Shown in pieces: positions 242 to 44,933 of a DNA stretch of 64,000 nt. The notes below the pieces were generated by a model. The model saw nothing but the letters and a program-made list of their open reading frames with translations, was not told the origin of the DNA and ran no database searches. The stretch covers positions 76,766 to 140,765 of the forward strand of contig JAQURC010000001.1 of NCBI GenBank assembly GCA_028715785.1, read 5' to 3'. The position numbers and the translations under genes were made by a program. Positions within the stretch are counted from its first letter, which is position 1. Every line of letters begins with the position of its first letter. The DNA comes from Candidatus Omnitrophota bacterium (GTDB taxonomy: Bacteria; Omnitrophota; Gorgyraeia; Gygaellales; Profunditerraquicolaceae).

Positions 242-988
242 ATGGTTTTATTCTGGATCTTAGCCGGCACCTTCTTAGTCAGCCTTATATCCTTAGTGGG
301 AATTTTTACTCTGGCGCTAAAGGATGATCTGCTGCATAAACTCCTTTTTTGCCTCATTGGTTTCTCGGCAGGGGCGCTCATCGGCAGCGCCTTTTTGCAC
401 ATCCTTCCGGAATGTTTAGAAAACAATAAAAGCACCACAGTTTTTTCCTACCTGATCCTGGGAATCATAATTTTTTTCCTTATGGAGAGGTATTTACACT
501 GGAGGCATTGTCATGAGGAAGGCGGTGCTTGCCAGACCCATTCCTTTACTTATCTGAACCTGGTAGGGGACGGATTCCATAATTTTATTGATGGTATGGT
601 AATCGCCGCAAGTTTCATTGTTTCTTTAAAACTCGGGCTGGTCACGACTCTGGCAATTATACTGCATGAAATTCCCCAGGAGCTGTGCGATTTTGCCGTC
701 CTGGTTTACGGCGGTTTTACCAAGAGGAAGGCGCTTTTGTTTAATTTTGCTTCGGCGCTTATGGCGGTAATCGGGGCGGTTACAGGCTATTTTATAACCG
801 ATCTTAGCAAGAGTTTTTTGAATTTCATCCTTCCTTTTACCGCCGGCGGCTTTATTTATATCGCGACCAGCGATTTGATCCCGGAACTGCATAAAGAAAA
901 CGACCTTAAGCGCTCGACTGCCGCTTTTTTTGCCTTCTTGCTCGGTATAGTATTTATGGCGCTGGCAAAAAATTTCTTACCCGAGTAG
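242..988 (+). CDS. zupT: ZIP family divalent metal (Zn/Fe) transporter, ZupT-like
   Basis: HNFIDGMVIAASF and LHEIPQELCDFAVL ZIP signature motifs; multi-TM protein of 248 aa. Confidence 0.75.
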   Translation: MVLFWILAGTFLVSLISLVGIFTLALKDDLLHKLLFCLIGFSAGALIGSAFLHILPECLENNKSTTVFSYLILGIIIFFLMERYLHWRHCHEEGGACQTHSFTYLNLVGDGFHNFIDGMVIAASFIVSLKLGLVTTLAIILHEIPQELCDFAVLVYGGFTKRKALLFNFASALMAVIGAVTGYFITDLSKSFLNFILPFTAGGFIYIATSDLIPELHKENDLKRSTAAFFAFLLGIVFMALAKNFLPE

Positions 989-1000: not shown

Positions 1001-1981
1001 ATGAAAATAAAAGCATTGGCTTTGATTTCCGGGGGCCTGGATAGTTTATTGTCGGCAAAGCTGGTCCATGACCAGGGAGTGGAGGTCATCGGGGTACATT
1101 TTAAAATCCCTTTTTGCAAGTTAAACATAAGAAAGGTTTTTCCCGATATCGGCATAGAAATAATCGAAGTTGACTTAAGCCAAGAGTTCCTTAAGCTCAT
1201 CGAAGAGCCCTGTTATGGCTTTGGCGCGAACATGAACCCTTGTATCGATTGCAAGATCCTTATGTTCAGCAAGGCCAGAGAGTTGATGAGCCGGATGGGA
1301 GCAAAATTCGTCATTACCGGTGAAGTGCTTGGACAGCGTCCGATGTCCCAGAATAAACAAGCCCTGAAGTTGATTAAGCGGCAAAGCGGGCTTGATGATT
1401 TATTGCTGCGCCCGCTATCGGCGAAGTTTTTTCCGCCCAGCCTGGCTGAAAAAGAGGGCTGGGTTAAAAGAGAAGAGCTGTTTAATTTTAACGGCCGCCG
1501 GCGCACTGCGCAGATGCAGCTGGCTAAAGACCTGGGGCTTCTAAAATACTCAACACCTGCCGGAGGGTGCCTGTTGACCGACCCTTGTTTTTGCAGGAGG
1601 CTGCAAGAGCTTCTGTCGCATAAAGAATTGGACCTGGATAATCTGGCGCTTTTAAAAGTAGGCAGGCATTTTCGCATAGGCAATAATGCCCGGCTTGTTG
1701 TCGGCAGAGAGAAAGATGAAAATGACCTGCTTATGCGTTTAGCCAGGCCGGGGGATTATTTGTTCGGCCCGCAAAAGGATCTGGCCGGGCCTACGGCATT
1801 AGCCAGGGGTCTAATTACTCCGGAATTAACTTTTTTAGCTTCAGAGATAACCTCTGCTTATACTGATGCCGTCGGCTTAAAAGAAATAGAGGTGCTCTAT
1901 CGGCAGGTCCCTGCGGCAAAAGATAATATGCATAAGATACTCCATGTGTCCAAAAGCAGGTTTGCGCATTTATTAATATGA
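1001..1981 (+). CDS. PP-loop ATP pyrophosphatase of the ThiI/MnmA/TtcA sulfurtransferase class with a C-terminal Cys-rich extension
   Basis: N-terminal SGGLDS PP-loop. NPCIDCKILMF resembles the MnmA NPCVRCNQFIKF motif. ITGEVLGQRPMSQ resembles the ThiI TGESLGQVASQ motif. Additional Cys cluster GGCLLTDPCFC. Confidence 0.6.
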   Translation: MKIKALALISGGLDSLLSAKLVHDQGVEVIGVHFKIPFCKLNIRKVFPDIGIEIIEVDLSQEFLKLIEEPCYGFGANMNPCIDCKILMFSKARELMSRMGAKFVITGEVLGQRPMSQNKQALKLIKRQSGLDDLLLRPLSAKFFPPSLAEKEGWVKREELFNFNGRRRTAQMQLAKDLGLLKYSTPAGGCLLTDPCFCRRLQELLSHKELDLDNLALLKVGRHFRIGNNARLVVGREKDENDLLMRLARPGDYLFGPQKDLAGPTALARGLITPELTFLASEITSAYTDAVGLKEIEVLYRQVPAAKDNMHKILHVSKSRFAHLLI

Positions 1982-2982
1982 AAGAAGCTTTACTTTATAC
2001 CCGGCTAGACGGCCTAAGCGTGCATTGCCAGCTCTGCGCGCATAGCTGTAAAATCCAGGAAGGTAAATTCGGTTTTTGCGGGGTACGGCAGAACATCGAA
2101 GGCGCCCTTTACACGCATAATTATGGCAAGCTGGTAGCGGTAAACATAGACCCGGTTGAGAAAAAACCGCTTTTTCATTTTCTTCCCGGGACAACCGCCT
2201 TTTCTATCGCCAGCGCGGGGTGTAATTTCCGCTGCGGCTTTTGCCAGAATTGGCAGATTTCCCAGCTGGATTTTATTAATCAGCAGCCTCCGGGAGAAGA
2301 TTTTAGCCCTGATAAGGTCGTAAAACTGGCTAAGCAGAATAATTGTAAAAGCATCGCTTATACTTATACCGAGCCGACGATTTATTTTGAGTTTGCTTTA
2401 GAGGCGGCGGTATTGGCCAAAAAAGCGGGACTGGCTAATATATTTGTTACCAACGGTTATATGAGCCCTCAAGCAATTGCTTTGCTCAAGCCATATTTAG
2501 ACGCCGCTAATGTGGATTTAAAGTTTTACAAGGAGAGTTCTTATCAGAAGATTTGCGCCGCAAAACTGGCGCCTGTTTTGGATTCTATCAAGCGGTTATA
2601 CGCTGCCGGAGTTTGGATTGAGATTACGACCTTGGTAATTCCCGGTGAAAATGATTCCCCGGAAGAATTATCCGGGATCGCGAAATTTATCGCCGGAATA
2701 AGTAAAAACATCCCCTGGCATGTTTCTGCTTTTCACGCGGATTATAAGTTTAGCGCTTATCCAAACACACCCGAACAGACTCTCAAGCTGGCCTATGATT
2801 TGGGCAAAAGCAGCGGGTTGCTTTATGTGTATGCCGGCAATGTTTATGGTTGGGGCCAGGATACTTCCTGCGGCCAATGCAAAAGGGCCGTTATTAAAAG
2901 AGAAGGGTTCGATATAACCGAGTCCAATCTTGCGGGCAATAAATGCGTATTTTGCCAGGCAGTCTTGCCCGGAGTTTTTTAG
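1978..2982 (+). CDS. AmmeMemoRadiSam-system-type radical SAM enzyme (PflA-like activase fold)
   Basis: N-terminal CQLCAHSCKI motif (C-x2-C-x-H-x-C) plus the radical SAM motif CNFRCGFCQNW. Overlaps the stop of the preceding PP-loop gene by 4 nt. Confidence 0.7.
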   Translation: MKEALLYTRLDGLSVHCQLCAHSCKIQEGKFGFCGVRQNIEGALYTHNYGKLVAVNIDPVEKKPLFHFLPGTTAFSIASAGCNFRCGFCQNWQISQLDFINQQPPGEDFSPDKVVKLAKQNNCKSIAYTYTEPTIYFEFALEAAVLAKKAGLANIFVTNGYMSPQAIALLKPYLDAANVDLKFYKESSYQKICAAKLAPVLDSIKRLYAAGVWIEITTLVIPGENDSPEELSGIAKFIAGISKNIPWHVSAFHADYKFSAYPNTPEQTLKLAYDLGKSSGLLYVYAGNVYGWGQDTSCGQCKRAVIKREGFDITESNLAGNKCVFCQAVLPGVF

Positions 2983-3157
2983 TTTGAGTTGATTTTCTAG
3001 GCTAAAATTGGGCTAAAGATTAGTATTGACAGCCTTAACCGCCGGGTTTAAAATAATTTAGAAACTTAAGCTAACTTACAATTGTCCTTATAAATAAAAC
3101 AATAAAGGCATATACTTTCACGGCCTAAATTGGCGCCTTAAAGGGCGCCAAAAAATT

Positions 3158-3832
3158 ATGGTAGATAAAAATAACCGGCTTGACCCTAAAAAGTGCATTG
3201 TTTTTTTTGATTTTGACAATACCATCGCCACCTGCGATGTTTTTGATAATATGCTTTTGCTTTTTTCCAAAGATGACCGCTGGGTGGAACTGGAGAAAAG
3301 ATGGAAGAGCGGCAGGATCGGCTCAAAGACCTGCCTGGAGGGCCAGCTCCGCGGCATGGATTTAAGTAACAAGACGCTGGATGCCTATCTGCCCAAGATA
3401 AAACTGGATCCTTATTTTAAGCAGGTTTATAAGTTTCTGCAGGCCAAAAAAATCAAAGCCTTTGTTTTGAGCGATAACTACGACTACATAATTAACCGGG
3501 TTTTAAAGATCAACCGCATAAACAAACTTAAAGTTTACGCCAATAAGTTGCGTTTTTCCAAGGGCGAAGTGATTACGGAATATCCTTTCAAGGATAAAGA
3601 CTGCCAGATCTGCGCGCATTGTAAAACAAAAAACCTTCTGGAAAAAGCGCCCAAAAATTCCACAATAATTTATGTCGGCGACGGTGAATCCGATGCCTGC
3701 CCGGCAAAATACGCCCAGGTTGTATTTGCCAAGGACCATCTGCTCCGGCATCTCAAAGAAAGCAAGCTGGATTACATGGCTTTTAATAACCTAAAAGACG
3801 TGCTTATTTATTTAAAAAGGAAACTGATATGA
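3158..3832 (+). CDS. HAD-IB family phosphatase, MtnX-like
   Basis: DFDNTIA HAD motif I, a GDGESD motif, and a CQICAHCK Cys cluster as in MtnX-type phosphatases. Confidence 0.55.
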   Translation: MVDKNNRLDPKKCIVFFDFDNTIATCDVFDNMLLLFSKDDRWVELEKRWKSGRIGSKTCLEGQLRGMDLSNKTLDAYLPKIKLDPYFKQVYKFLQAKKIKAFVLSDNYDYIINRVLKINRINKLKVYANKLRFSKGEVITEYPFKDKDCQICAHCKTKNLLEKAPKNSTIIYVGDGESDACPAKYAQVVFAKDHLLRHLKESKLDYMAFNNLKDVLIYLKRKLI

Positions 3833-5244
3833 GCCCAAAACAGTTGACCAAAACAGCTAAAAACAAAAAGGTTTTTACCCGGGATGAACTTTTGGACCTT
3901 GAGGCAAGATACTGTTCATGGGGGGATACGGTGCATTATGCCGAGAAGCTCGATATATTTAAGAGCGCTCAAGGCAGCTATCTTTATGACCGCCAGGGCA
4001 CGGAGTATTTGGATTTACAGATGTGGTATTCGGCGGTTAATTTCGGTTACCGGAATGTGCGTTTGAATGAGGCCCTAAAAAAACAGATCGATACCCTGCC
4101 GCAGCTGGCTTGCCAGTATCTGCACGAGGAGAAGATCCATCTGGCTGCAAAATTAGCGCAGAAAAACCAGTGTACCTTCGAAGAAAAAGGGAGGATCCAT
4201 TTTAATGTCGGAGGCTCAAGCGCCCTGGAAGATTCATTAAAGTTAGTGCGCAATCATACCGGCAGGAGCCTGGTTTTTGCTTTTATGGGCGGCTATCACG
4301 GCAGGACGCTGGCGGCTTCGGCGATCACCTCAAGCTTCAGGTACAGGGAACGCTTCGGCCATTTCGGCGACCGGGCGATGTTTGTGCCTTATCCTTATTG
4401 TTTCAGGTGCCCGTATGATAAAAAAAGGGATTTTTGCGATTTATATTGCCTCAAGCAATTTGAAAGGCTTTTTGAGACCGAATATTATTCGGTGGTAAAC
4501 AAGAAGAATAACAAATGTGAATTTGCCGCCTTCTACGCCGAAGCAATCCAGGGCACCGGCGGTTATATTGTCCCGCCCCAGGAATATTATGCGGGATTAA
4601 AAAACATCTTGGACCGTTACGGGATCCTTTTTGTCGACGATGAGATACAGATGGGGTTTTTCCGCACGGGTAAGTTCTGGGCGATCGAGCATTTTAATAT
4701 TACTCCGGATATAATCGTTTTTGGCAAGGCGCTGACCAACGGGTTAAATCCCATCAGCGGAGTCTGGGCTAAAGAGAAGCTTATTTCACCGGATGTTTTT
4801 CCCCCGGGCTCAACCCACGCTACATTTTCATCCAATCCTCTGGGCACTGCCGCCGGCCTGGAAGTGATGAAATTGATCGAGGAATCCGATTTTTCTGCCT
4901 CGGTCCCCAAAAAAGGCCGCTATTTTATCGCCCAGCTTAAGAAATTACAGAAAAAATATCCGCAGATCGGCGATGTGGACGGAATTGGCCTGGCCTTAAG
5001 GGTAGAGATATGCGAAAAGGACGGCTATACTCCGAATAAGGAGCTTACCGATAAGATCGTGAACCTGGGATTAAGCGGATCCTTGAATGTCAGGGGAAAG
5101 CGCCGGGGCCTGATCCTGGATGTGGGAGGCTATTATAAAAATGTCTTTACCATCGCCCCGTCATTTTATATCACCGAAGAAGAGATCGACCTGGGGGTTG
5201 AGCTTTTTGAAGAGGCCTTAAACAGGGCGCTTAAAAAATCATAA
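3829..5244 (+). CDS. Class-III (omega) PLP-dependent aminotransferase
   Basis: 471 aa with typical AT-III features (GGSSALE..., FGK lysine region FGKALTNG). Start overlaps the upstream stop. Confidence 0.7.
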   Translation: MSPKQLTKTAKNKKVFTRDELLDLEARYCSWGDTVHYAEKLDIFKSAQGSYLYDRQGTEYLDLQMWYSAVNFGYRNVRLNEALKKQIDTLPQLACQYLHEEKIHLAAKLAQKNQCTFEEKGRIHFNVGGSSALEDSLKLVRNHTGRSLVFAFMGGYHGRTLAASAITSSFRYRERFGHFGDRAMFVPYPYCFRCPYDKKRDFCDLYCLKQFERLFETEYYSVVNKKNNKCEFAAFYAEAIQGTGGYIVPPQEYYAGLKNILDRYGILFVDDEIQMGFFRTGKFWAIEHFNITPDIIVFGKALTNGLNPISGVWAKEKLISPDVFPPGSTHATFSSNPLGTAAGLEVMKLIEESDFSASVPKKGRYFIAQLKKLQKKYPQIGDVDGIGLALRVEICEKDGYTPNKELTDKIVNLGLSGSLNVRGKRRGLILDVGGYYKNVFTIAPSFYITEEEIDLGVELFEEALNRALKKS

Positions 5245-5253
5245 GAATCCACT

Positions 5254-6183
5254 ATGCTGGATAAAGGCACCCGCGTTTTGAATTTCGATAACAGCATTAT
5301 TGCCCAACCCAAACTCCTTAGCCGCTATCCGGCAGAAATTATTGATTTTACAGACTTGGCTCCTTCTGCCCGGCTTTATATCTCAAGGGCCCTGCGCGGG
5401 AAAATCCTGGATTCTCTTGCCCCGGGAGAAAAAAAATATCCTGTTTTTCTGGGCTCAGGTGATTTTCATCATATCAGCGAAATATTAATCAGCCAAATTA
5501 ATGAGCCTGCCTGTTTGATCGTATTTGATTTCCATCCGGACTGGGATGTCCTGCCTCCCCGTTTTGCCTGCGGCTCCTGGGTAAGCGAGGCTCTAAAAAA
5601 CAAAAATATTTCTAAATGCATACTTATCGGCGCCGGCTCCGATGATTTATCCAGCCCGGCATTACAGACGGCCAACCTTGGCGCTTTGGCCGGTAATCGC
5701 CTGGAGGTTTATCCTTACAGCCATAAACCAGCTAGCGTTTATTTCAGGGGCGTTGCGCAAAACCGCTCGATTACGGTCCAAAAAGGAATTTTTTCAAATA
5801 AAATCATCTGGCACCAGTTGGAGAAAGAGGACTTAACCGCCTTTACCCTGGGATTGATCAAGGGCCTGCCCGAGCGAAAAGTTTATATCTCAATCGATAA
5901 AGATTGCCTAAAAAAAGATTTTGCCTTGACCAATTGGGAAGAAGGCCTTTTGCGTCTGGACCAACTCTTGGCCATGCTGAAGCTGATGCGGGAAAATTTG
6001 GATATAATTGGTTTAGATGTGGCAGGCGACTATTCTGTCCCGCTGGTTTTAAACAAAATAAAGTCGGTTATTTCAAGGCTGGATCATCCTAAAAAATTTT
6101 CTGCAAAAAATTACCCTGCTGATTTGATTTCTTCGGTAAATGAACAAACTAACCTTATGATCCTTGCCGAGGTCTTTCCCTAA
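5254..6183 (+). CDS. Divergent arginase/agmatinase (ureohydrolase) family protein
   Basis: Degenerate ureohydrolase metal-binding motifs GSGDFHHIS, DFHPDWD and SIDKDCL. Confidence 0.4.
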   Translation: MLDKGTRVLNFDNSIIAQPKLLSRYPAEIIDFTDLAPSARLYISRALRGKILDSLAPGEKKYPVFLGSGDFHHISEILISQINEPACLIVFDFHPDWDVLPPRFACGSWVSEALKNKNISKCILIGAGSDDLSSPALQTANLGALAGNRLEVYPYSHKPASVYFRGVAQNRSITVQKGIFSNKIIWHQLEKEDLTAFTLGLIKGLPERKVYISIDKDCLKKDFALTNWEEGLLRLDQLLAMLKLMRENLDIIGLDVAGDYSVPLVLNKIKSVISRLDHPKKFSAKNYPADLISSVNEQTNLMILAEVFP

Positions 6184-7043
6184 GCTTTATATTTTTCAAA
6201 AAAATCCGCTGTTATCTGCGCGACTTTATCTCTTTCCTGGTCCGCGGTAATAATGTGATAAGAATTTTCCAGAAAGAATATTTCTTTTTCCCGGGAGTTC
6301 ACGTGGTCGCGGATATAGAAAGAGTTCTTGGGGCTGGTTACGTCATCATCCCTGGCCTGCATCAGCTGGATAGGAGTGGTTATATTTTTAAGTATGGAGA
6401 TTACTTTTTTTGAGAGCAGGTAATTTTGATACATGCAGGCAACCGGGATTACCGGATAACCGTAAAGGTGGACCTTGCTGTAATCGAAGAGCCCGGCTTC
6501 CTTGTAAAAATTTTCTATTTTTGACCTTAAGCGCTCATTTTTTATCCCGTAAGGGTATTCTTCTTTGAAGTAGAGCCAGTATTTTAACGGCATCCTGTAA
6601 ACTATGGGTAAAAGCATCCTGGATTTAGGGTTGCCCCATCCGTCAAAAAATAGCGTGGGGGAAAAGCAGTTCAGCGCCTTTACTTTTTTAGGGAATTCAT
6701 AAGCAAGCAGGATCCCGATCAGGGCGCCAAAAGATAATCCGGCTACGAAGATATTTTCATGCTTATCGGCGTATTTAATAAATTCATCGCGTACGGAGCG
6801 ATAAAGTTCTTGCCAGGATGTCCGTTTAAGGCAGGAGATGGATTTATTGTGATTGGCCATAAGCGGGGCTGCCACGGAAAATCCCTGTTTATTCAGGCGC
6901 TGGGCGATTGAGCTCATTTCTTTGGCCGTGCCGGTAAGCCCATGAATCAGGAAGCAGAGATTTTTGTCTCCGGGCAGGAAAAAGCCGGTATCAGGTATAT
7001 CGGTAATCGAACGCCGGTCTTCTTTTAGTGAAAAAATTACCAT
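6180..7043 (-). CDS. Alpha/beta hydrolase (esterase/lipase-like)
   Basis: GLSFG nucleophile elbow (GxSxG), HGLTG oxyanion region; 287 aa. Confidence 0.6.
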   Translation of the reverse strand: MVIFSLKEDRRSITDIPDTGFFLPGDKNLCFLIHGLTGTAKEMSSIAQRLNKQGFSVAAPLMANHNKSISCLKRTSWQELYRSVRDEFIKYADKHENIFVAGLSFGALIGILLAYEFPKKVKALNCFSPTLFFDGWGNPKSRMLLPIVYRMPLKYWLYFKEEYPYGIKNERLRSKIENFYKEAGLFDYSKVHLYGYPVIPVACMYQNYLLSKKVISILKNITTPIQLMQARDDDVTSPKNSFYIRDHVNSREKEIFFLENSYHIITADQERDKVAQITADFFEKYKA

Positions 7044-7053
7044 ATTTCCTTTC

Positions 7054-8274
7054 TTAAATTTCTTTTAGTTTATTGATTATATTCTTCAGGTCAGTTTCTT
7101 TTAAAAAGCCGCTGGTGCTTAAGGTCATTGTTCTTTCTGCCAGCAGGCGGCTATTCGGGCAATCCGCAGCCGGGATAATATTTTTTAAATAAGCGTAATC
7201 TGTAATAGCGTGCAAGTATACCCTGGATATTCCCAGTCCGGAATTACTGAAAGCCTGCAGGGCCAAATCTCTTTTTTGCCGGTCATTAAAAATAAGGGTT
7301 AAATACGGGTAGCTTGCTTTTGTTTGCGGTAGTTCAGTGATAGGCTTAACCCCTGGAATATCGGTCAACCCTTTTAGATAAATACCCGCTTTTTTCCTCT
7401 GCTCATTTATTCTTTCGTTTAAGTACGGGAAATTGAGATGCCCGATATATTCCCTAAAAGTTGAAACCCTGTGCACGGGGAAATCAGGATCAAAATATTC
7501 TCCCATTGCCCTTATCGGATCATTGCGTATCCGCCAGAATATCTGGGGGAGCCTGAAGGCAAACCAAAACAACCCCGGCCGGTAAAAAATGCCATAAGCA
7601 AAAAGCTCGGCGATTTTTAGGCATTCGGACCGGCCATCCCGGTTCATAATTTCTTCGAAGGTCTCTTTTAAAATCCGGGCATGCTCGGGCCGGTTGGCTA
7701 CGGCTATGCCGCCTTCATAGATACTCAGCCCTTTGCCCCGGCAGAGGCTAAAGAATGAAAATTCTCCCCAAGAACCTGTTTTTTTACCGCGGTATTGTGC
7801 GCCTAAACTCTGCGCGCAATCTTCGATAATAAAAGCATCCTTGGCTTGGGCGATCTCTCTTAATGCGTCAAGATCTATCGGCAGGCCTCCAATATGGCCG
7901 GCTAATATCGCCAAAATATCGTGGTCCTCTTTACAAATACTCTTAAGTTTATTTATATCAAAATCAAAGTTAAACGCGTTTGTATCGCAGGCCTTGATAT
8001 TAAGGCCTGCCCTTTTAATCGCCAAAGGTATCAACGGGCAGATAAAAGCCGGGATAATTACGGTTTTTTTGCCGGAAAGTTTTTTCAGGGTTTCCAGGAT
8101 CAGGTAGAATGCGGCGGTCCCCGAATAAGTAAGCAAGGCGCTTGATGCGCCAAGGTAGTTTTTAAAGTCTTCTTCCAATAATCCCGCGGGGTGTTTTTTA
8201 AAAGAGGAGAAGATCAAACTTTTGATTGTCAGCGGCCAACCCGCGGTTGGCGGGATCTCTCGTAGGATGCTCAA
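7054..8274 (-). CDS. DegT/DnrJ/EryC1/StrS family PLP-dependent sugar aminotransferase (ArnB/PglE-like)
   Basis: 406 aa with DegT-family organisation; same strand and 10 bp from the downstream hydrolase. Confidence 0.7.
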   Translation of the reverse strand: MSILREIPPTAGWPLTIKSLIFSSFKKHPAGLLEEDFKNYLGASSALLTYSGTAAFYLILETLKKLSGKKTVIIPAFICPLIPLAIKRAGLNIKACDTNAFNFDFDINKLKSICKEDHDILAILAGHIGGLPIDLDALREIAQAKDAFIIEDCAQSLGAQYRGKKTGSWGEFSFFSLCRGKGLSIYEGGIAVANRPEHARILKETFEEIMNRDGRSECLKIAELFAYGIFYRPGLFWFAFRLPQIFWRIRNDPIRAMGEYFDPDFPVHRVSTFREYIGHLNFPYLNERINEQRKKAGIYLKGLTDIPGVKPITELPQTKASYPYLTLIFNDRQKRDLALQAFSNSGLGISRVYLHAITDYAYLKNIIPAADCPNSRLLAERTMTLSTSGFLKETDLKNIINKLKEI

Positions 8275-8345
8275 ATTTTAATTCCTTTTCTGTTATCCAA
8301 TTTATCTATTTTATGCTAAAATAAACGGAAATTCAAGCTAACTCT

Positions 8346-9467
8346 ATGCCTAAAATCAGCTGCCGGGTATTTGATAATATAAACAGGATCGACGAAAAAG
8401 ATTGGGATGCTGTTTTCGGGGATATCCCGGAGGGCTATCCTTTTTATAAGGCGTTGGCTAATTCCGAACTTCCCGATTTTGCATTTTATTATTTGGTTAT
8501 TTATCGCGATGCCGAAGTTGTGCTTATTGCCCCGTTATTCAGCGCTGATTTTAACCTGGATATTGCCGTAGAAGGCCGGGTTTCCAAAGTCATTAAATTT
8601 ATCCGTAAATTTTTTCCGCGTTTTTTGATTTTAAAGACGCTTTTTTGCGGCACGCCTTTCGGAGAGTATGGGGTTTTGGGGATCAGGCAGGATTTCCAGG
8701 ATGACCCCGGGGCCATCCCGTTGTTATTAGCGGGCATAAAAGATTTAGCCGTTAAAATCAATGCCCCGCTGGTAATTTTTAAGGATTTTTTAAAGCAGGG
8801 CACGCTGTTTTTAGATGCTTTAACCCGGCAAGGGTATTCTAAAGTAAAAAGTTTTCCCACCGTACTTTTGGATCTTAATTTTGCCTCTTTTGAAGATTAT
8901 CTTAAAAGCTTAGGGAGCTCTACCCGCAAGAGTTTAAAGAAGAAGCTAAAACAGGCATACAGCCGGGGCAGGATAGAGGTTAAGGTGTACCAAGATATTA
9001 ACGGCCAGATTGACCAGATCGCCAAACTTTATGAAAATACTTACCGCGAAGGCCCGACTAAATTTGAGCGCTTAAACCAGAAATTTTTTCTGCAGGCCGC
9101 CCATGATCTATATCCGCATACCCGTTTTTTCCTCTACTATGTGGACGGTAAATTGGCCGCCTTTAATCTTTGTTTTGTCTATCGGGATTTACTTATTGAT
9201 AAATTCATCGGTTTCGACTATGATGTATCCAATTATTACCATTTATATTTTGTCAGCTGGGCTTATAATATCAGATGGTGCATAGATAATTCCCTGCGTT
9301 ATTATCATCCGGGCCAGACCGATTATGAACCCAAGATCAGGCTTGGCGGCGAGATTATCCCGCTTTACGCTTACTTAAAACATAAAAACATATTTTTTAA
9401 TCTGCTGCTCAAATTACTCATTCCAATTTTTAAGCCTGAGAATTTTGATGAGTATATCGGGGAGTAA
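8346..9467 (+). CDS. GNAT-fold FemAB/BioF2-like acyl(aminoacyl)transferase
   Basis: 373 aa with overall similarity to the FemAB-like Acetyltransf_6 family; divergent from the DegT gene. Confidence 0.4.
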   Translation: MPKISCRVFDNINRIDEKDWDAVFGDIPEGYPFYKALANSELPDFAFYYLVIYRDAEVVLIAPLFSADFNLDIAVEGRVSKVIKFIRKFFPRFLILKTLFCGTPFGEYGVLGIRQDFQDDPGAIPLLLAGIKDLAVKINAPLVIFKDFLKQGTLFLDALTRQGYSKVKSFPTVLLDLNFASFEDYLKSLGSSTRKSLKKKLKQAYSRGRIEVKVYQDINGQIDQIAKLYENTYREGPTKFERLNQKFFLQAAHDLYPHTRFFLYYVDGKLAAFNLCFVYRDLLIDKFIGFDYDVSNYYHLYFVSWAYNIRWCIDNSLRYYHPGQTDYEPKIRLGGEIIPLYAYLKHKNIFFNLLLKLLIPIFKPENFDEYIGE

Positions 9468-10872: not shown

Positions 10873-11466
10873 ATGGCTAAGAGAAAAATTATCAATATTG
10901 ATGAAGAGAAATGTAATGGATGCGGCCTGTGCATACCCAACTGCCCGGAGGGTGCAATTCGGATCATTGATAAGAAAGCCCGGTTAATCAGTGATTTATT
11001 CTGTGACGGCCTGGGCGCCTGCCTTGGTTATTGCCCGCAAGGGGCAATTAGCATAGAAGAAAGGGAGGCTGCTCCGTATGATGGGAAAAAAGTAAACATT
11101 GGTTCTGGGCTGTGCCAATGGCCGATACAGCTGTGTCTTGTGCCGGCACATGCCCCATACTTTGAAGGGGCGGATGTTTTAATTTCCGCTGATTGCGTGC
11201 CGTTTGCCTACGCTGATTTTCATCAGGATTTATTAAGAAATAAAATTCTTCTGGTTGGTTGTCCCAAGTTTGATGATATATCTCTATACCGAGAAAAGCT
11301 CAAGCAGATATTTACGGAAAATAATATTAAATCCGTAACCTGCGCGCACATGGAGGTCCCTTGTTGTTTTGGCTTGCTTCCCGTAATTAATGCAGCGCTT
11401 AAAGGGTCGGGTAAGAAGATACCGTTTGAGGATATTACTATTAGTATTAAAGGAAAGAAGGTTTGA
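10873..11466 (+). CDS. 4Fe-4S ferredoxin-domain protein
   Basis: CNGCGLCIPNCPEGAI and CDGLGACLGYCPQGAI cluster motifs. Confidence 0.7.
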   Translation: MAKRKIINIDEEKCNGCGLCIPNCPEGAIRIIDKKARLISDLFCDGLGACLGYCPQGAISIEEREAAPYDGKKVNIGSGLCQWPIQLCLVPAHAPYFEGADVLISADCVPFAYADFHQDLLRNKILLVGCPKFDDISLYREKLKQIFTENNIKSVTCAHMEVPCCFGLLPVINAALKGSGKKIPFEDITISIKGKKV

Positions 11467-11575
11467 TGTTTGATAAGTGTTGCGGCTCAAGTAAAAAGCA
11501 GTTGCTATCCTGCTTACTTTGTTGTACCTTAATATTAAAGGAAGATTTAAAGCAAACATAAAAAAGGAGGCAAAG

Positions 11576-11917
11576 ATGTGTATGGTAAGGTTATCGCATT
11601 TGATGGCCGTTGTGCCGATCTCGCTCCTATTGACCGTAAGTTTTTTTGTCCTTTTTGTGATGCGCAAGATTGAAGATAAAGCCCTTAAAACCTTTGGCTA
11701 TGTGGTAATTAGTTTCCTTTGGCTGGCGGCGCTGGTTGTGTTTTCAGGCGCGGTTTATAAGACGGCTAAAGGCGCTATGGCAATGAAATGTATGATGCAT
11801 AAAGGCGGCATGCCGGCTATGGTTATGCCTGAAAAAGGCCCGCTCCCTAAAGATGATAAAAAGCCCGCTGCCCCCAAAGGCGAGGCTAACAAAGGGATTA
11901 TTTTTAAAGCCCAATAG
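11576..11917 (+). CDS. Small membrane protein (2 TM) with a Lys/Pro-rich C-tail; unknown function
   Basis: AAGGAGG RBS before ATG 11576. The track ORF from 11519 is over-extended. Confidence 0.4.
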
Positions 11918-11948
11918 TTGGTTTAGCGGATATGTTCGGGAGGGCAAA

Positions 11949-12110
11949 ATGAGCAAATATAAATGTCTGGTTTGCGGCTATATTTATGACCCCGGCGCAG
12001 GGGATCCGGATAATGGGATTGCCCCCGGGACTAGTTTTGAAGACCTGCCGGATACCTGGGTTTGCCCTGAATGCGGGGTGGGCAAGGACCAGTTTGAAAA
12101 AATAGTTTGA
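11949..12110 (+). CDS. rub: Rubredoxin
   Basis: [10 protein letters not shown]...[13 protein letters not shown], two CxxCG knuckles. GGGAGGG RBS. The track ORF from 11853 is an upstream over-extension. Confidence 0.9.
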
Positions 12111-12138
12111 TTGGTATGTGTTATCGCGGCGGATAAGA

Positions 12139-12843
12139 ATGCCCGTAGAAATCAGAGCCAAGATAAAAGAAATTATCCAGCGCAATTATAACGTAAAGAG
12201 TTTTCGCCTGGAGGTTCCCGGCACCCTGGATTTTAAAGCCGGCCAGTTCCTGTCGGTTGAGCTTGAAAATAATCCAAAATTTAGAAGATACCTTTCTATC
12301 TCCAGCTCTCCGACTGAAAAATGCCATTTGGAATTTACCAAGAAACTGACCCAGAGTGATTTTTCCAAGGCGCTGAATAATCTAAAAGCAGGCGATCAAG
12401 TTAGCATCGAGTATCCCTTTGGGAAATTTATCCTGGATGAATCTTTGGCCAAGGTTGCTTTTTTGTCCGGAGGCATAGGAATTACTCCTGTCCGCAGTAT
12501 CTGTAAATACGCGGTTGATAAAAATTTGGGCATCGATATGGTGCTGGTTTATTCTAACCGGTCGGTGCGGGATATAGTTTTTAAGGATGATTTTGACGCT
12601 ATGGCCAAGAGTTATCCTTCTTTGAAAATCGCGCATGTCCTGTGTGAGACCGAAACCGGCTTTAAATGCACTGTCGGCCTGATTAACAGCAGCGTAATCA
12701 GGAATGAAATCCCGGATTATCGGGAGAGAAAGTTTTATCTTTGCGGCCCGCCGCAGATGGTCGAGGCGATGCGTAAGATACTGGTTGAGGAGATGGGTTT
12801 AAATAGCGGCAGGATTATTACCGAGAATTTTCAGGGCTATTAG
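12139..12843 (+). CDS. FAD/NAD(P)-binding oxidoreductase (FNR-like reductase; probable rubredoxin/FDP reductase partner)
   Basis: FNR-like beta-barrel and NAD-binding motifs (RxYS-like RYLSISS, GGIGITP). Start could alternatively be GTG 12118. Confidence 0.6.
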   Translation: MPVEIRAKIKEIIQRNYNVKSFRLEVPGTLDFKAGQFLSVELENNPKFRRYLSISSSPTEKCHLEFTKKLTQSDFSKALNNLKAGDQVSIEYPFGKFILDESLAKVAFLSGGIGITPVRSICKYAVDKNLGIDMVLVYSNRSVRDIVFKDDFDAMAKSYPSLKIAHVLCETETGFKCTVGLINSSVIRNEIPDYRERKFYLCGPPQMVEAMRKILVEEMGLNSGRIITENFQGY

Positions 12844-12910
12844 CACCCCGCGCTTAAAGGAGTTGCGCGCCTGCCTGCCGGCAGGGGTGTGCCTTACTGG
12901 CAAGGAGGAA
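12844..12910 (+). repeat. Structured intergenic repeat, copy B
   Basis: CACCCCGCGCTTAAAGGAGTTGCGCGCCTGCCTGCCGGCAGGGGTGTGCCTTACTGGCAAGGAGG, immediately 5' of the fprA ATG. Confidence 0.7.
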
Positions 12911-12913
12911 ATT

Positions 12914-14101
12914 ATGGCGGCGCTAGAAATATTACCGGGCATATATTCGGTGGGAGTAGTAGATTGGAATGTGCGTAATTTCCACGGGCATACTTATACC
13001 ACCCGGAGGGGCTCGACTTACAACGCCTACCTGATTATCGATGAGAAAATTGCCCTTGTCGATACCGTTTATACCCCATTTTCTGAAGAATTGATCAATA
13101 ACATCAAAGAAGTTGTCCCTCTGGGAAAGATCGACTATATTATCGCCAATCATGTTGAGGTTGATCACTCCGGGGCCTTGCCCAGCATCATGGCGCTTTG
13201 CTCCAAAGCCAGGATTTTAGGTACCGCCAAATGCAAGGAAGGGCTTTACCGGCATTATTACCAAAACTGGAATTTTCAAACCGTTAAGACGGGAGATAAG
13301 TTAGAATTAGGTCGGCGCACCCTTAATTTTATCGAGGCTCCGATGATCCATTGGCCGGATAGCATGTTCACTTATTGCCCGCTTGATTCCCTGCTCATGC
13401 CTAATGACGCCTTTGGCCAGCATTTCGCCACCGCCGAGCGGTTTGACGACCAGGTTGATCAATGCGCGCTAATGGAAGAGGCAGAGGAGTATTATGCCAA
13501 TATCCTTTGGCCGCTTAATTCCGTAATTTCAAGGAAGATCCAGGAGATACAGAAATTAAATGTACCGATTAAAATGATCGCCCCCAGCCACGGGATTATC
13601 TGGCGTAAGGACCCGGCTAAGATAATCAACGCCTATCGTTCCTGGAGCGCGGGGGATACCAAAAATAAAGCGGTGGTTGTTTATGAGACGATGTGGGGGG
13701 CAACTGATAAGATGGCTAAACAAATAGCCCAAGGCATAGCCAGCCAAGGCATAGAAGTCAAACTTTATAATATCGCGGAAACCGACCGTACCGAGGTAAT
13801 TACGCAGATGTTATCGGCCAGAGGTTTTCTTTTTGGTTCCTCCACCCATGATAATGATATGCTGCCCAATATTGCCGCATTCCTGGAAATAGTCAAAGGC
13901 TTAAAACCTAAGGGCAGGCAGATTAGTTTCTTTGGTTCTTATGGCTGGGCCGGCGGGGCAGTTGGCGAGATGCAGGAGCTGCTCAAAGATAGCGGGGCGG
14001 ATTTTACTATCCCCGGCATAGCTTTTAAATATGTCCCTGATCAGGCCGAATTGGAGAGCTGTTTTGAATTTGGCAGCAAATTTGCCAAAATCTTGAAATG
14101 A
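12914..14101 (+). CDS. fprA: Flavodiiron protein (FprA/ROO; O2/NO reductase)
   Basis: Metallo-beta-lactamase-like N-domain with HVEVDHSG plus a C-terminal flavodoxin domain. ATG 12914 follows the AAGGAGG of the repeat element. Confidence 0.8.
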   Translation: MAALEILPGIYSVGVVDWNVRNFHGHTYTTRRGSTYNAYLIIDEKIALVDTVYTPFSEELINNIKEVVPLGKIDYIIANHVEVDHSGALPSIMALCSKARILGTAKCKEGLYRHYYQNWNFQTVKTGDKLELGRRTLNFIEAPMIHWPDSMFTYCPLDSLLMPNDAFGQHFATAERFDDQVDQCALMEEAEEYYANILWPLNSVISRKIQEIQKLNVPIKMIAPSHGIIWRKDPAKIINAYRSWSAGDTKNKAVVVYETMWGATDKMAKQIAQGIASQGIEVKLYNIAETDRTEVITQMLSARGFLFGSSTHDNDMLPNIAAFLEIVKGLKPKGRQISFFGSYGWAGGAVGEMQELLKDSGADFTIPGIAFKYVPDQAELESCFEFGSKFAKILK

Positions 14102-14568
14102 AAAAGATCCCCGCCGAAATTATTAATTTTTTAGGCGCCCAGGATTTTGTGATAATCTCTTCCATAGACAAAGCCGGTTTTCCCCATAGTTCATGCAAGG
14201 CGATAATCAGGATAGACCAGGCCGGCAGGATTTTTTTGGTGGATCTTTACCATGGGGCAACCTGTGAGAATATAAAAGCTAACCCGCGAATAAGCATTAG
14301 CGCCGTTGATGAGCATAAGTTTGCCGGCTATTGCCTTAAAGGCAGGGGAGAAATTATGTCCGGTAACAATATCAGCCAGGAGATCATTAAAATCTGGGAG
14401 GATAATATTACCGGCCGGCTGGCAAAAAGATTGTTGAAGAACTTGTCCGGAGACAGGGGCCACGGCCATCATCCCGAAGCCAGCCTGCCGCATCCCAAAC
14501 ATATTATCGTAATTAAAGTGGAAGAGATAGTTGACCTTGCTCCGGTCCATTTGAGAAAGGAAAAATAA
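14098..14568 (+). CDS. Pyridoxamine 5'-phosphate oxidase-like FMN-binding family protein
   Basis: PNPOx-like split-barrel pattern over 156 aa. Confidence 0.5.
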   Translation: MKKIPAEIINFLGAQDFVIISSIDKAGFPHSSCKAIIRIDQAGRIFLVDLYHGATCENIKANPRISISAVDEHKFAGYCLKGRGEIMSGNNISQEIIKIWEDNITGRLAKRLLKNLSGDRGHGHHPEASLPHPKHIIVIKVEEIVDLAPVHLRKEK

Positions 14569-14569
14569 T

Positions 14570-14806
14570 ATGGCCAAGAGCGTGATAGTCTATAGTACTC
14601 CGACTTGCCCCTGGTGCATCCGGGTCAAACAGTTTTTAAAAGAGAACAACATATTATTTTTAGATTGGGATGTGTCCGTTGATCAGGCCGCCGCGGATGA
14701 GATGATCAAGAAGAGCGGCCAGATGGGGGTGCCGGTGCTGGATATCGACGGACAGATTATCGTGGGGTTTGATAAAGAAAAAATTAAAGCAGCTTTAGGA
14801 GTATAA
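14570..14806 (+). CDS. Glutaredoxin-like protein (YruB/NrdH-like)
   Basis: YSTPTCPWC thioredoxin-fold active site; 78 aa. Confidence 0.75.
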   Translation: MAKSVIVYSTPTCPWCIRVKQFLKENNILFLDWDVSVDQAAADEMIKKSGQMGVPVLDIDGQIIVGFDKEKIKAALGV

Positions 14807-14822
14807 GTTATATTTTGTACTC

Positions 14823-14972
14823 AGGACTTTGTCGCGTGCGAAATTTTTCGCCGTCTGCTGCTGTTTACGACTCACTCTCGGACTGACTTACGTTGTAAGA
14901 ATGTCCTCCGTTCGTCGTAATTCCTTGCACACAGTTGCCGAAAAATTTCTAATTGCACGTTTACAAAGTCCT
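14823..14972. repeat. ~150-bp element bounded by ~30-bp imperfect inverted repeats (MITE-like or double operator)
   Basis: AGGACTTTGTCGCGTGCGAAATTTTTCG at 14823-14850 is the reverse complement of CGAAAAATTTCTAATTGCACGTTTACAAAGTCCT at 14939-14972 apart from small indels. Confidence 0.5.
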
Positions 14973-14994
14973 TCGACAAAATATGATTAACATT

Positions 14995-15906
14995 ATGCAT
15001 ATCTACGATTTGATTATTATCGGGGCAGGGCCGGCGGGAATTACCGCCAGTGTTTATGCCGCCAGGAAAAAATTGGATTTTCTGGTGGTTAGCCTGGATA
15101 TCGGCGGCCAGACCGCCTGGAGCGGGGATATCGAAAATTATACGGGATACCAGTTCATTACCGGACCGGAATTGACCCAGAAGTTCCAAGAGCATATGCG
15201 TAAATACGATATTGCCTTAAAAGAAAATGAAGAGGTTTTAGGGCTTGAGAAAACCGGCGAGATATTTTTAGTCAAGACCAGTAAGGCGGATTATCAGGCC
15301 CATAGCGTGATCATTGCTTCCGGAAAAAAATCCAGGGAGCTGGGGGTCCCGGGGGAGAAAGAATTCAAGAATCGCGGCCTGACATATTGCGCTACCTGCG
15401 ACGGCCCGTTATTTACGGGCAAAGTTGTGGCGGTAATCGGGGGCGGAAACTCGGCGCTGGATGCTGCCCTGCAGCTGATGAAAATCGCCAAACATGTCTA
15501 TATTATCAATAATACCGGCCGGCTGGCCGGGGATGCGATCATGCTCCAAAAGGCGCAGGAAGCCGGCAACGTTACAATTTTAAATAATCATCAGGTCAGC
15601 GCTGTCTTGGGAGATAAATTTGTCCGCGCGATTAAAATCAAGAATAAGGATCAGGAAAAAGAGTTGGCCGTCGAAGGGGTATTTGTGGAGATCGGGCTTA
15701 TTCCCAACTCCGGGTTCCTTAAGGATATAGAAAAGAACGCGGCAAATGAGATAAATATAAATTTATCTAACCAGACCAATGTCCCTGGGGTATTTGCCGC
15801 AGGCGACGTAACCAATGTTTTAGAGAAGCAGATTATTATTGCCGCAGGCGAAGGATCGAAGGCTGCCTTGAGCGCCTTCCGTTACCTGGCCCAGAAAAAA
15901 TTTTAG
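14995..15906 (+). CDS. trxB: Thioredoxin-disulfide reductase
   Basis: IIIGAGPAG FAD motif and CATCDG redox-active disulfide. An alternative start lies at 14983. Confidence 0.85.
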   Translation: MHIYDLIIIGAGPAGITASVYAARKKLDFLVVSLDIGGQTAWSGDIENYTGYQFITGPELTQKFQEHMRKYDIALKENEEVLGLEKTGEIFLVKTSKADYQAHSVIIASGKKSRELGVPGEKEFKNRGLTYCATCDGPLFTGKVVAVIGGGNSALDAALQLMKIAKHVYIINNTGRLAGDAIMLQKAQEAGNVTILNNHQVSAVLGDKFVRAIKIKNKDQEKELAVEGVFVEIGLIPNSGFLKDIEKNAANEININLSNQTNVPGVFAAGDVTNVLEKQIIIAAGEGSKAALSAFRYLAQKKF

Positions 15907-16206: not shown

Positions 16207-17010
16207 ATGATTCTTCGAGATAAGCTGGATTTTCTTAAACGCAAAATTTGCGGATACAAATCCTGCGTAGTAGCGTTCTCCGGAGGACAGGACAGCGCTT
16301 TTTTGCTTAAAGCTTGTTCGCTGGCGCTGCCGGCAGATAGGATATTGGCGGTGACGGCAGTTTCTGCCACTTATCCGCAGGCAGAGCTGGCCAAGGCAAA
16401 AATACTGGCTAAAGATGTCGGGGTAAGGCTCAAAGTAATCAATACCCGCGAGCTGGACAATAAAAAGTTTGCCGCTAACCCCATTAAACGCTGCTATTTT
16501 TGCAAAAAGGAACTTTTTTCAAAATTAATCGCGATTGCCAGGCAGAATAAGTTAGATTCTGTTCTGGAGGCAAGCAACATTACCGATAAAAAAGATTATC
16601 GTCCGGGAAATATTGCTAAAATCGAGCTTAAAATAAAGTCGCCTTTAATGGAGACCGGTTTTAGCAAAGAAGATATCCGTAAATTAAGCAGGAGGATGGG
16701 GCTTTCCAGTTGGAATAAACCCAGTCTGGCCTGCCTTGCTTCGCGCATACCTTACGGCACTAAAATTACCGCCAAGCTGCTTAAGCGTATTGATCAGGCG
16801 GAGGAATATTTGATCGGCTTGGGTTTTAAGCAGGTGCGCTTACGCCATTATAACGGGCTCTGCCGCATTGAAGTGGATAAAAAAGATATGCCGCGCCTGT
16901 TAAAGAAACGCCAGGCGGTAGTTGAGCGCTTAAAAGATTTAGGGTATAATTATATTACTTTAGATTTAGAAGGGTATCGGCAGGGAAGTTTAAACGAGGT
17001 AATCAGATGA
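16207..17010 (+). CDS. LarE-family PP-loop ATP-dependent sulfur transferase (TIGR00268-like)
   Basis: AFSGGQDS PP-loop and PSLACLASRIPYG, which matches the LarE catalytic SCLASR cysteine motif. Confidence 0.65.
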   Translation: MILRDKLDFLKRKICGYKSCVVAFSGGQDSAFLLKACSLALPADRILAVTAVSATYPQAELAKAKILAKDVGVRLKVINTRELDNKKFAANPIKRCYFCKKELFSKLIAIARQNKLDSVLEASNITDKKDYRPGNIAKIELKIKSPLMETGFSKEDIRKLSRRMGLSSWNKPSLACLASRIPYGTKITAKLLKRIDQAEEYLIGLGFKQVRLRHYNGLCRIEVDKKDMPRLLKKRQAVVERLKDLGYNYITLDLEGYRQGSLNEVIR

Positions 17011-19113: not shown

Positions 19114-19289
19114 TAAATTCAATGAATAATGGGACCGTTTCTATAGCATAGACAGTGTATGTAATCTCATTAATACCAGGAGATTACGAAACAAATATTT
19201 TAGATTCAAATAGTTTTCGTTAGATTTAGCCTTTTCTTGCGTCAATTGGGCTAGGAGAAGATTCTACTAACGCAAGAGGGGAGGAGCAT

Positions 19290-19526
19290 ATGGAAACAAA
19301 AATAGCGGTATTCAGAGGCAAAGAAGTACGCAAAACCATTCATAAGAATGAATGGTGGTTTGTGATCATTGATGTTGTCGCTGTTCTTACGGATTCAGTG
19401 CAGTCCGATGGGTATATAAAGGATATGCGCAGAAGAGACCCGGAATTATCGAAAGGGTGGGGGCAAATTGCCACCCCCCTTTTGATTAAGACGGCAGGAG
19501 AGTTTCAACACGTGAAAATTATTTAA
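19290..19526 (+). CDS. Bro-N/DinD (DNA-damage-inducible protein D)-like small protein, phage-associated family
   Basis: NEWWFVIIDVVAVL core and DPELSKGWGQ resemble Bro-N/DinD. GGGGAGGAG RBS. Confidence 0.45.
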   Translation: METKIAVFRGKEVRKTIHKNEWWFVIIDVVAVLTDSVQSDGYIKDMRRRDPELSKGWGQIATPLLIKTAGEFQHVKII

Positions 19527-19669
19527 AGGGGCCGCAAGATAAGAGGTTTTTAAAGTAGGTAAAAACTATGGGACGCTTCGGGTTTTTAAAAAAGATGAGT
19601 AGTGATAAATAGCCGTTTCTATTTTTTTCGGTAATTAAAATTCCAACAATTTAGAAGGAGGGTTTAAAA

Positions 19670-19930
19670 ATGCCTAGAAAACCGAAATTCAGGCCGGTAA
19701 TTACGCGGGTAAAACTTAATCCAGAGCAGGCGGTGTTGTCGTGTAATTGTTATTATCTCGGAAAACAAGATTCAATTTCATTGGCTTGGCGTACTGACAT
19801 AGTTCCGTTACAAACGGGGTGGTGCGTAGGCGGTTTTAAGTCGCTTGCTCCTTATGGGCGTTGTGATAGTCATACGAAGGGTCGGTATGCAGTAACTGGT
19901 GATTATGAAGTAGCCTCCGCAAATAGTTAA
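19670..19930 (+). CDS. Cys-rich 86-aa hypothetical protein (orphan)
   Basis: Strong AAGGAGGG RBS. SCNCYY...C...C pattern. No family recognised. Confidence 0.4.
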   Translation: MPRKPKFRPVITRVKLNPEQAVLSCNCYYLGKQDSISLAWRTDIVPLQTGWCVGGFKSLAPYGRCDSHTKGRYAVTGDYEVASANS

Positions 19931-44932: not shown

Positions 44933-44933
44933 G

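Follow-up and report, generated by a model that had tools for sequence, protein, structure and literature searches.

In Candidatus Omnitrophota, a gene for a PP-loop protein of the ThiI/NFACT-R family runs directly into a gene for a radical S-adenosylmethionine (SAM) enzyme of the AmmeMemoRadiSam family (hereafter rSAM), and the pairing is retained across the clade. It lies in a stretch of 64,000 nucleotides (nt) of assembly GCA_028715785.1 (contig JAQURC010000001.1, positions 76,766–140,765, forward strand), which is referred to as a whole as the window. We propose, tentatively and with a probability of about 0.45, that the pair forms a co-expression unit, specific to the clade and maintained by selection, made up of two iron-sulfur (Fe-S) enzymes that act on the same substrate class, most likely tRNA. 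The proposal is built on gene structure, family membership, conserved residues and retained adjacency, all of which are observed. The features of the pair are as follows:

1001..1981, + strand: ThiI/NFACT-R PP-loop gene, 326 amino acids (aa), open reading frame (ORF) confirmed
1978..2982, + strand: AmmeMemoRadiSam rSAM gene, 334 aa, ORF confirmed
1978..1981, + strand: ATGA stop/start overlap of 4 nt, sequence TTA ATA TGA, with the ATG of the rSAM gene inside

The sequence-only reading of this DNA had described a 326-aa PP-loop ORF and an rSAM ORF that share 4 nt, and the coordinates and the junction sequence bear this out. The ATGA overlap indicates that the two genes are probably translationally coupled. 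When one genome of each GTDB species was scanned, 575 relatives of the PP-loop protein came up, and the best 80 were examined (PP-loop identity 48–78%); by the labels in their records nearly all are Omnitrophota, with a few 'uncultured Planctomycetales' and one Margulisiibacteriota. An rSAM orthologue (56–78% identical) directly follows the PP-loop gene in 77 of 77 loci, the remaining three of the 80 being contig ends. The junction is a 4-nt overlap in 46 of these loci, a 1-nt overlap in nine and a gap of at most 88 nt in the rest, these lengths resting on start positions inferred from alignments.

For a control on synteny, loci with a PP-loop identity below 64% were taken as divergent. In this group the rSAM gene adjoins the PP-loop gene in 37/37 loci, whereas direct adjacency holds in 13/36 for the ZIP gene that precedes the pair in the window and in 4/25 for the HAD gene that follows it (HAD being absent in 15); among the close loci, ZIP directly adjoins the PP-loop gene in 21/24. 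Many loci without direct ZIP adjacency carry a FeoB gene inserted between ZIP and the PP-loop gene, and insertions or replacements (FeoB, thiamine genes) are found on both flanks of the pair, never between its genes. Both proteins have hundreds of homologues, and a search from the rSAM side, on independent metagenome contigs (L090–L092 and L123, at least 59% identity), finds the PP-loop gene upstream in four of four. The adjacency is kept far above background synteny and is more than chance. A comparison of gene neighbourhoods across genomes, suggested earlier as a check on the pairing, thus finds the two genes co-inherited in all loci within the clade and outlasting the synteny that surrounds them.

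On the evidence of its sequence, the PP-loop protein belongs, as a typical representative, to the ThiI+DUF814/NFACT-R family, which had been described before. Burroughs and Aravind (2014) predicted ThiI+DUF814 proteins to be an alternative tRNA 4-thiouridine (s4U) synthase without THUMP or rhodanese domains, with a CxxC and an internal cysteine, a GRxRxxQ motif and two NFACT-R arginines that precede strand one and helix one as hallmarks (PMC4075521). The protein shares this layout, with a PP-loop domain followed by a C-terminal NFACT-R domain, the CxxC and internal cysteine, the GRxRxxQ motif and the two arginines:

1028..1045, + strand: PP-loop ATP-pyrophosphatase signature SGGLDS (residues 10–15), conserved in at least 90% of 144 family representatives
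1241..1252, + strand: C81-I-D-C84, the CxxC half of CXXC+C, predicted [4Fe-4S] ligands, invariant
1493..1513, + strand: GRxRxxQ motif G165-R-R-R168-T-A-Q171, specific to ThiI+DUF814 proteins (motif of PMC4075521)
1568..1570, + strand: C190 in GGCLLTD, the last of three invariant cysteines, predicted to be the third ligand of the cluster, 100% in the family representatives
1661..1954, + strand: NFACT-R_2 domain (residues 221–318), PF18297, 51.8 bits against a gathering threshold (GA) of 26.9

Against Pfam, the protein also matches ThiI (38.4 bits, GA 20.5, residues 4–139) and tRNA_Me_trans (32.4 bits), and the PP-loop and NFACT-R_2 domains account for all 326 aa, with no THUMP, rhodanese or further Pfam match. 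The NFACT-R_2 domain, which defines the family and had been missed in the sequence-only reading, is predicted to be an RNA-binding module that takes the place of the THUMP domain of canonical ThiI. That reading had also noted an MnmA-like NPCIDCK and a ThiI-like TGEVLGQ motif; both are present, in a protein that is a member of this known family rather than an unusual hybrid. G165, R166, R168 and Q171 are each at least 90% conserved in the 144 representatives, and the alignment together with an AlphaFold2 (AF2) model identifies the two conserved NFACT-R arginines as R222, which precedes strand 222–227, and R236, which precedes helix 238–247. The model, built on 39 homologues, has a predicted local distance difference test (pLDDT) score of 88.4. 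Foldseek searches with its N-terminal half recover MnmA, ThiI (2c5s, 4kr6), LarE, including the [4Fe-4S] form, and other PP-loop enzymes, and those with its C-terminal half the NFACT-R region of FBPS (5h3w) and RqcH (8s1u_H). Among solved structures there is no close homologue of either the PP-loop protein or the rSAM. The PP-loop family is large, with 896 clusters at 50% identity (E ≤ 1e-30).

C81, C84 and C190 are the sole invariant cysteines, conserved in 100% of 76 clade members and of the 144 representatives, and this triad marks ThiI/NFACT-R proteins as probable Fe-S enzymes. An extra cysteine cluster GGCLLTDPCFC, put forward earlier as a C-terminal Fe-S or persulfide site, is rejected because only C190 within it is invariant: C196 is kept in 1% of the family representatives and 30% of the clade, C198 in 10% and 1%, and C71, outside this segment, is likewise not conserved. 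The clade departs from the family at large in an additional cysteine, C39, which is present in 88% of its members against 17% family-wide.

A protein 100% identical to the PP-loop protein, from an Omnitrophica metagenome-assembled genome (MAG) at NCBI, is annotated 'tRNA 4-thiouridine(8) synthase ThiI'. The PP-loop protein is neither canonical ThiI nor MnmA, since it scores 38.5 bits against the curated ThiI model TIGR00342 (cutoff 264.5) and 29–32 bits against the MnmA models TIGR00420 and PRK00143 (cutoffs 237–284), and the genuine three-domain MnmA of the organism lies at 27362..28438 of the window; its candidacy as the organism's MnmA or standard ThiI is therefore ruled out. No THUMP-ThiI gene was found in Pfam scans of the ORFs of the window, and ThiI+DUF814 proteins and canonical THUMP-ThiI are reported to have a mutually exclusive distribution (PMC4075521). 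Even if the pairing were mere inherited synteny, this would be a gain for annotation, as neither MnmA nor canonical ThiI is a fitting name for such PP-loop proteins.

A biochemical parallel is provided by archaeal TtuI (Methanococcus maripaludis and Pyrococcus furiosus), in which CXXC+C (C265, C268 and C348 in MmTtuI) binds a catalytic [4Fe-4S] cluster, and for which it has been proposed that a hydrosulfide on the unique iron attacks adenylated U8 (PMC9825150). Like TtuI, the PP-loop protein combines a PP-loop with the CXXC+C triad and has no rhodanese domain, and by analogy the TtuI mechanism would fit it. Unlike TtuI, which has N-terminal NFLD/THUMP domains, it carries a C-terminal NFACT-R, and the spacing from CXXC to the third cysteine is 106 residues against 80 in MmTtuI, cluster binding being a prediction for the protein studied here. 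Taken with the family assignment, it is predicted to be a [4Fe-4S]-dependent tRNA uridine thiolase (s4U synthase).

The downstream gene encodes what is, by sequence, an ordinary AmmeMemoRadiSam family member with a PflA/activase-like core. In the NCBI family models the AmmeMemoRadiSam system consists of an AMMECR1-like protein A (TIGR04335), a MEMO-like protein B (TIGR04336) and a radical SAM enzyme (TIGR04337). The rSAM matches TIGR04337 ('AmmeMemoRadiSam system radical SAM enzyme') with 334.5 bits (cutoff 220), residues 8–334 aligning with positions 5–333 of the 349 in the model. Its motifs were compared in 88 family members divided into PP-loop-linked, Memo/AMMECR1-linked and solo groups:

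2026..2079, + strand: N-terminal C17-x2-C20-x-H22-x-C24...C34, the four cysteines invariant in all groups, H22 in 83–100%
2221..2244, + strand: radical SAM [4Fe-4S]/SAM-binding motif C82-x3-C86-x2-C89, invariant in all 88, Pfam Radical_SAM 83.9 bits
2869..2955, + strand: C298-x2-C301...C323-x2-C326, zinc-ribbon-like or second auxiliary cluster site, invariant in all groups

The C-x2-C-x-H-x-C motif that had been recognised as typical of AmmeMemoRadiSam enzymes is therefore confirmed by residues C17–C34 and the TIGR04337 score, and it is a probable auxiliary metal or Fe-S site. The C-terminal region has a weak YmcF-like match (20.4 bits, under GA), and a single-sequence AF2 model was unusable (pLDDT 38). 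TIGR04337 scores are 332–345 bits for PP-loop-linked, 327–352 for Memo/AMMECR1-linked and 351–359 for solo members, and just five positions among the 88 sequences are specific to the PP-loop-linked clade. Neofunctionalisation of the rSAM thus finds no support: in its score and in all Cys/His motifs of the family it equals the Memo/AMMECR1-adjacent homologues. Where the locus differs from the three-gene system is in the invariant neighbour of the rSAM, which is the predicted PP-loop thiolase.

The activase-like core raises the possibility that the rSAM is directed at a protein, as an activase or maturase like PflA and NrdG, its target being the PP-loop enzyme here and AMMECR1 or MEMO in other lineages. 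The next-best NCBIfam matches are indeed glycyl-radical enzyme activases (YjjW activase, PflA and NrdG), MoaA and PflA alone are the nearest solved sequence relatives (E ~1e-3), and translational coupling would give near-equal production of both proteins. We nevertheless regard this as very improbable: the activase scores are far below the cutoffs, a glycyl-radical-type motif is missing from the PP-loop protein, members of its family in other phyla do their work with no rSAM gene next to theirs, and no clade-specific co-variation was seen.

The absence of AMMECR1 and MEMO1 from the window, noted in the sequence-only reading, is upheld both by a Pfam scan of the window ORFs of at least 150 aa and by hidden Markov models (HMMs) for AMMECR1, Memo and LigB-like proteins built from Pfam-verified sequences. 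The AMMECR1 and Memo models, which recovered the positive controls L140, L148 and L149, gave no match in the window or within ~10 kb in L001–L080, L090–L092 and L123, all of them PP-loop-linked. This absence is less distinctive than had been thought. Among 80 of the closest metagenomic rSAM homologues, AMMECR1 occurs within the flanks in three and Memo/LigB in six; the other neighbours are heterogeneous. The commonest of these is a class-I SAM methyltransferase of ~250 aa (Methyltransf_11), directly beside a solo rSAM in 10 of the 80 loci (e.g. L121:5382-6140).

In the strictest form of a partnership, the rSAM, without AMMECR1 or MEMO, would serve ThiI/NFACT-R as a dedicated partner, so that the same tRNA uridine is thiolated and then undergoes a radical step to an undescribed thionucleoside. 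We consider this improbable. If true, tRNA would be the substrate on which the AmmeMemoRadiSam family as a whole acts and, by extension, AMMECR1/MEMO as well.

For the proposed co-expression unit we take the partnership to lie at the level of the process, that is, in the same RNA pool and possibly in successive steps, rather than in a demonstrated complex or shared intermediate. The cofactors, the substrates and any coupling of chemistry that we infer for it are as follows. The ThiI/NFACT-R protein would bind tRNA through its NFACT-R domain, the SGGLDS PP-loop would, as in its family, adenylate a uridine carbonyl at the expense of ATP, and, by analogy with TtuI/TtuA, a sulfide on the free iron of the [4Fe-4S] cluster held by C81, C84 and C190 would replace the oxygen. 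This reaction is predicted to give 4-thiouridine, probably at U8. The rSAM would cleave SAM at the C82/C86/C89 cluster to yield a 5'-deoxyadenosyl radical and then run the reaction of its family, for which RNA base modification has been the prediction since 2007, while the gene overlap would keep the two proteins co-expressed. The locus usually lies behind metal-uptake genes (ZIP and/or FeoB).

A partnership of this kind has a precedent in QueC and QueE, a PP-loop ATPase and a small PflA-like radical SAM enzyme that are encoded together and serve one 7-deazaguanine pathway in nucleobase modification. The precedent is an analogy only, since QueC lacks an RNA-binding domain and its product is a nitrile, not a thiocarbonyl; in the window the QueE and QueC models give marginal matches, that of QueC (27 bits) being to other proteins. 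A shared pathway of the PP-loop protein and the rSAM is plausible, and RNA modification is the most reasonable reading of the pair's role. Of the earlier suggestion that this unusual pairing could be a modification system, co-inheritance and coupling stand, together with an RNA role as the most reasonable one; a shared substrate or a single system is not supported.

The proposed unit fits two earlier in-silico predictions. Balaji and Aravind (2007) predicted an RNA base modification as the work of the AMMECR1/rSAM/dioxygenase triad (PMC2034487), and NFACT proteins have been linked to AMMECR1 in archaea (PMC4075521). The published context of the ThiI+DUF814 family is different in that TusA is absent here and a coupled AmmeMemoRadiSam rSAM is found instead, an association unreported in PMC4075521; in the window, no TusA-sized gene fits between the ZIP, PP-loop and rSAM genes. 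Linkage to TusA is a trait of the family's genomic context rather than of its structure. Our literature searches returned no experimental work on AmmeMemoRadiSam function or on ThiI/NFACT-R, and no further report on PP-loop/rSAM coupling beyond the TusA neighbour of 2014. Both families have been described previously; the invariant coupling of the two in Omnitrophota appears to be new.

Outside the clade, the neighbours of both genes are different. Seven non-core loci (Thermodesulfobacteriota, Syntrophaceae, Nitrospirae, a divergent 'Omnitrophica' MAG and further metagenome lineages) show ThiI/NFACT-R in the order PALP–HcyBio–NIL/Fer4–MnmA–LarE-like–ThiI/NFACT-R (three times), in the order MnmA–LarE-like–ThiI/NFACT-R, or with NifU and NifU_N, with thiamine genes nearby or with unrelated genes. 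These sulfur and Fe-S neighbours in other phyla speak in favour of a role of the PP-loop protein in sulfur transfer. A radical SAM gene next to the PP-loop gene in L089 is of the BATS type, which is a different family, and was not accepted as an instance of the pairing. Among the 150 best family representatives no PP-loop/rSAM fusion was found, the long ones being Fmt, HAD or TatC fusions; fusion to a Met-tRNA formyltransferase-like module in one of them (P0156) provides a weak link to tRNA. The HAD fusions are N-terminal (P0203, P0241), a HAD gene also following the pair in the window, and the TatC fusion (P0225) is probably a gene-calling artefact. It had been envisaged that the PP-loop gene might stand beside unrelated genes in relatives, and this is seen in distant relatives, since each gene has other neighbours outside the clade, but not within it.

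One locus from another lineage comes closer. In L141:4057-5995 an rSAM gene (product 50% identical), a gene for an Hpt-like phosphoribosyltransferase and a ThiI/NFACT-R gene, truncated where the contig ends, are tightly packed on one strand, and this is a second, looser association of rSAM with ThiI/NFACT-R.

Several observations weigh against the proposed unit. The PP-loop-linked rSAMs group as a single clade in a neighbour-joining tree, so that the adjacency arose once, and with a single origin the 77 loci count as approximately one event plus L141. In this compact genome, unrelated genes commonly overlap by 4 nt (e.g. at 3829, 14098 and 17007). No AmmeMemoRadiSam rSAM stands beside ThiI/NFACT-R in the seven non-core loci, rSAM relatives outside the clade likewise lack a PP-loop neighbour, and TusA is the only conserved neighbour of the ThiI+DUF814 family (PMC4075521). 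The rSAM probably does the same job as in unlinked lineages, because it shows almost no clade-specific changes. Lastly, the s4U assignment of the PP-loop protein is itself a prediction, made for a protein whose curated ThiI and MnmA scores are far below cutoff.

Much of this would also be expected if the pair consisted of two independent housekeeping enzymes, one for s4U synthesis and one with the usual AmmeMemoRadiSam function served by AMMECR1/MEMO encoded elsewhere, their adjacency being an inherited accident fixed by genome compaction and by an overlap that makes separation costly. The single origin, the lack of linkage in other phyla, an rSAM indistinguishable from Memo-linked homologues, the adjacent partners that are also missing for most close rSAM relatives and the frequent overlapping junctions in the window all agree with such an accident. 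It is harder to reconcile with a junction kept in 37/37 divergent genomes in which both flanking junctions are mostly broken, with FeoB and thiamine genes that were inserted or exchanged on either side and never inside the pair, and with the separate near-linkage in L141; we consider it rather unlikely, if still a serious competitor of a selectively maintained unit.

The genes exchanged at the flanks suggest a further alternative. In a divergent sub-clade (L039–L080 and L092, e.g. L043:7235-14456) the order is ZIP–FeoB–PP-loop–rSAM–isochorismatase/nicotinamidase-like–Thi4–ThiE; FeoB lies directly upstream in 24 loci, and an isochorismatase-family gene, Thi4 and ThiE are found downstream in 17, 16 and 14. 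A nicotinamidase would make sense beside Thi4, because Thi4 releases nicotinamide from NAD. The pair could accordingly belong to an iron- and sulfide-dependent cofactor module with FeoB/ZIP and the nicotinamidase-like/Thi4/ThiE genes, in which the ThiI-like protein would carry the sulfur needed for thiazole or some other cofactor and a radical step would fall to the rSAM. The flank counts are in keeping with this, as are a non-Omnitrophota ThiI/NFACT-R gene near ThiE–ThiS–ThiG–ThiH–ThiF (L088) and the dual role of Escherichia coli ThiI in s4U and thiazole synthesis. The thiamine genes are, however, absent from the sub-clade of the window itself, where a HAD/aminotransferase block takes their place, and the window lacks ThiS, ThiF and ThiG. 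Thiazole synthases of the Thi4 type in prokaryotes take their sulfur from free sulfide and are not known to require ThiI or ThiS, and the NFACT-R domain points to an RNA substrate. We hold a cofactor module to be distinctly improbable.

Conservation of AMMECR1 and MEMO1 extends from archaea to humans, both have links to disease, and the triad with their prokaryotic radical SAM partner was noticed in 2007. A retained, coupled pairing across dozens of species is independent contextual support for an rSAM that acts on RNA, and the pairing is a modest new clue that the AmmeMemoRadiSam rSAM family does so. It does not solve the AMMECR1/MEMO/rSAM problem; it does suggest a two-gene, tRNA-centred approach to it.

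The genes on either side of the pair appear to be less closely tied to it:

242..988, + strand: ZIP-family metal transporter, Pfam Zip 161.5 bits, ending 12 nt upstream of the PP-loop gene
3026..3054, + strand: sigma-70-like promoter match, TTGACA-17-TAAAAT, 11/12, the best in the region, in the 175-nt gap after the rSAM gene

The ZIP gene is probably in the same transcription unit as the PP-loop gene and is a non-obligate companion of the pair. Downstream, the next gene starts at 3158, and the promoter match is likely to mark the predicted start of a separate HAD/aminotransferase unit; promoter and terminator counts in the region do not exceed the shuffled expectation. The first gene there encodes a HAD-IB MtnX-like phosphatase (TIGR01489, 102.5 bits, cutoff 81.55), followed by a class-III aminotransferase and an arginase-fold protein with a weak match (23.6 bits, GA 22). 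This agrees with the order of phosphatase, aminotransferase and ureohydrolase given in the sequence-only reading, with the qualification that the arginase-fold match is weak and that the block is separate and less conserved. These genes were rejected as members of the system because they adjoin the rSAM gene in just 4 of 25 divergent loci. The whole downstream group (3158..9467) continues with an alpha/beta hydrolase, a DegT-type aminotransferase and a FemAB-like/GNAT protein, and the class-III aminotransferase is unusually conserved, at 79–93% identity in genomes in which the PP-loop protein is ~50% identical. A search of the window against Rfam found no riboswitch or other RNA element near the pair; four tRNA genes elsewhere (Phe, Thr, Met and Gln) were the sole matches, and all four have U at position 8.

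The stretch 16207..18176 of the window carries a gene for a class-V cysteine desulfurase and, overlapping it by 4 nt, one for another PP-loop sulfur transferase, of the LarE family (TIGR00268, 307 bits). A 50%-identical homologue of the LarE-family protein lies between MnmA and ThiI/NFACT-R in L081–L083, L085 and L089 (Thermodesulfobacteriota, Syntrophaceae and others), where three PP-loop thiolation genes form one cluster. The canonical three-domain MnmA of the window opens a second tRNA/rRNA-modification neighbourhood (27362..30757), with NadA (quinolinate synthase), an RluA-type pseudouridine synthase and BacA behind it. An apparently complete biotin cluster occupies 18124..25611 (BirA-like repressor/ligase, BioB, BioF, BioH-like alpha/beta hydrolase, BioC-like, BioD and BioA). 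An oxygen/redox-defence group at 10873..15906 (ferredoxin-domain protein, FAD/NAD oxidoreductase, flavodiiron-type ODP+flavodoxin, PNPOx-like and thioredoxin-reductase-like proteins) and a six-gene Rnf complex at 43664..48383 are consistent with an anaerobic, Fe-S-rich lifestyle. The ORFs at 37286..37759 (157 aa) and, on the minus strand, 49002..49889 (295 aa) have no Pfam match at E ≤ 0.001. Nearly all genes of the window lie on the plus strand, and GC skew is positive throughout, with a cumulative curve that climbs monotonically, which is the pattern expected of a leading-strand segment.

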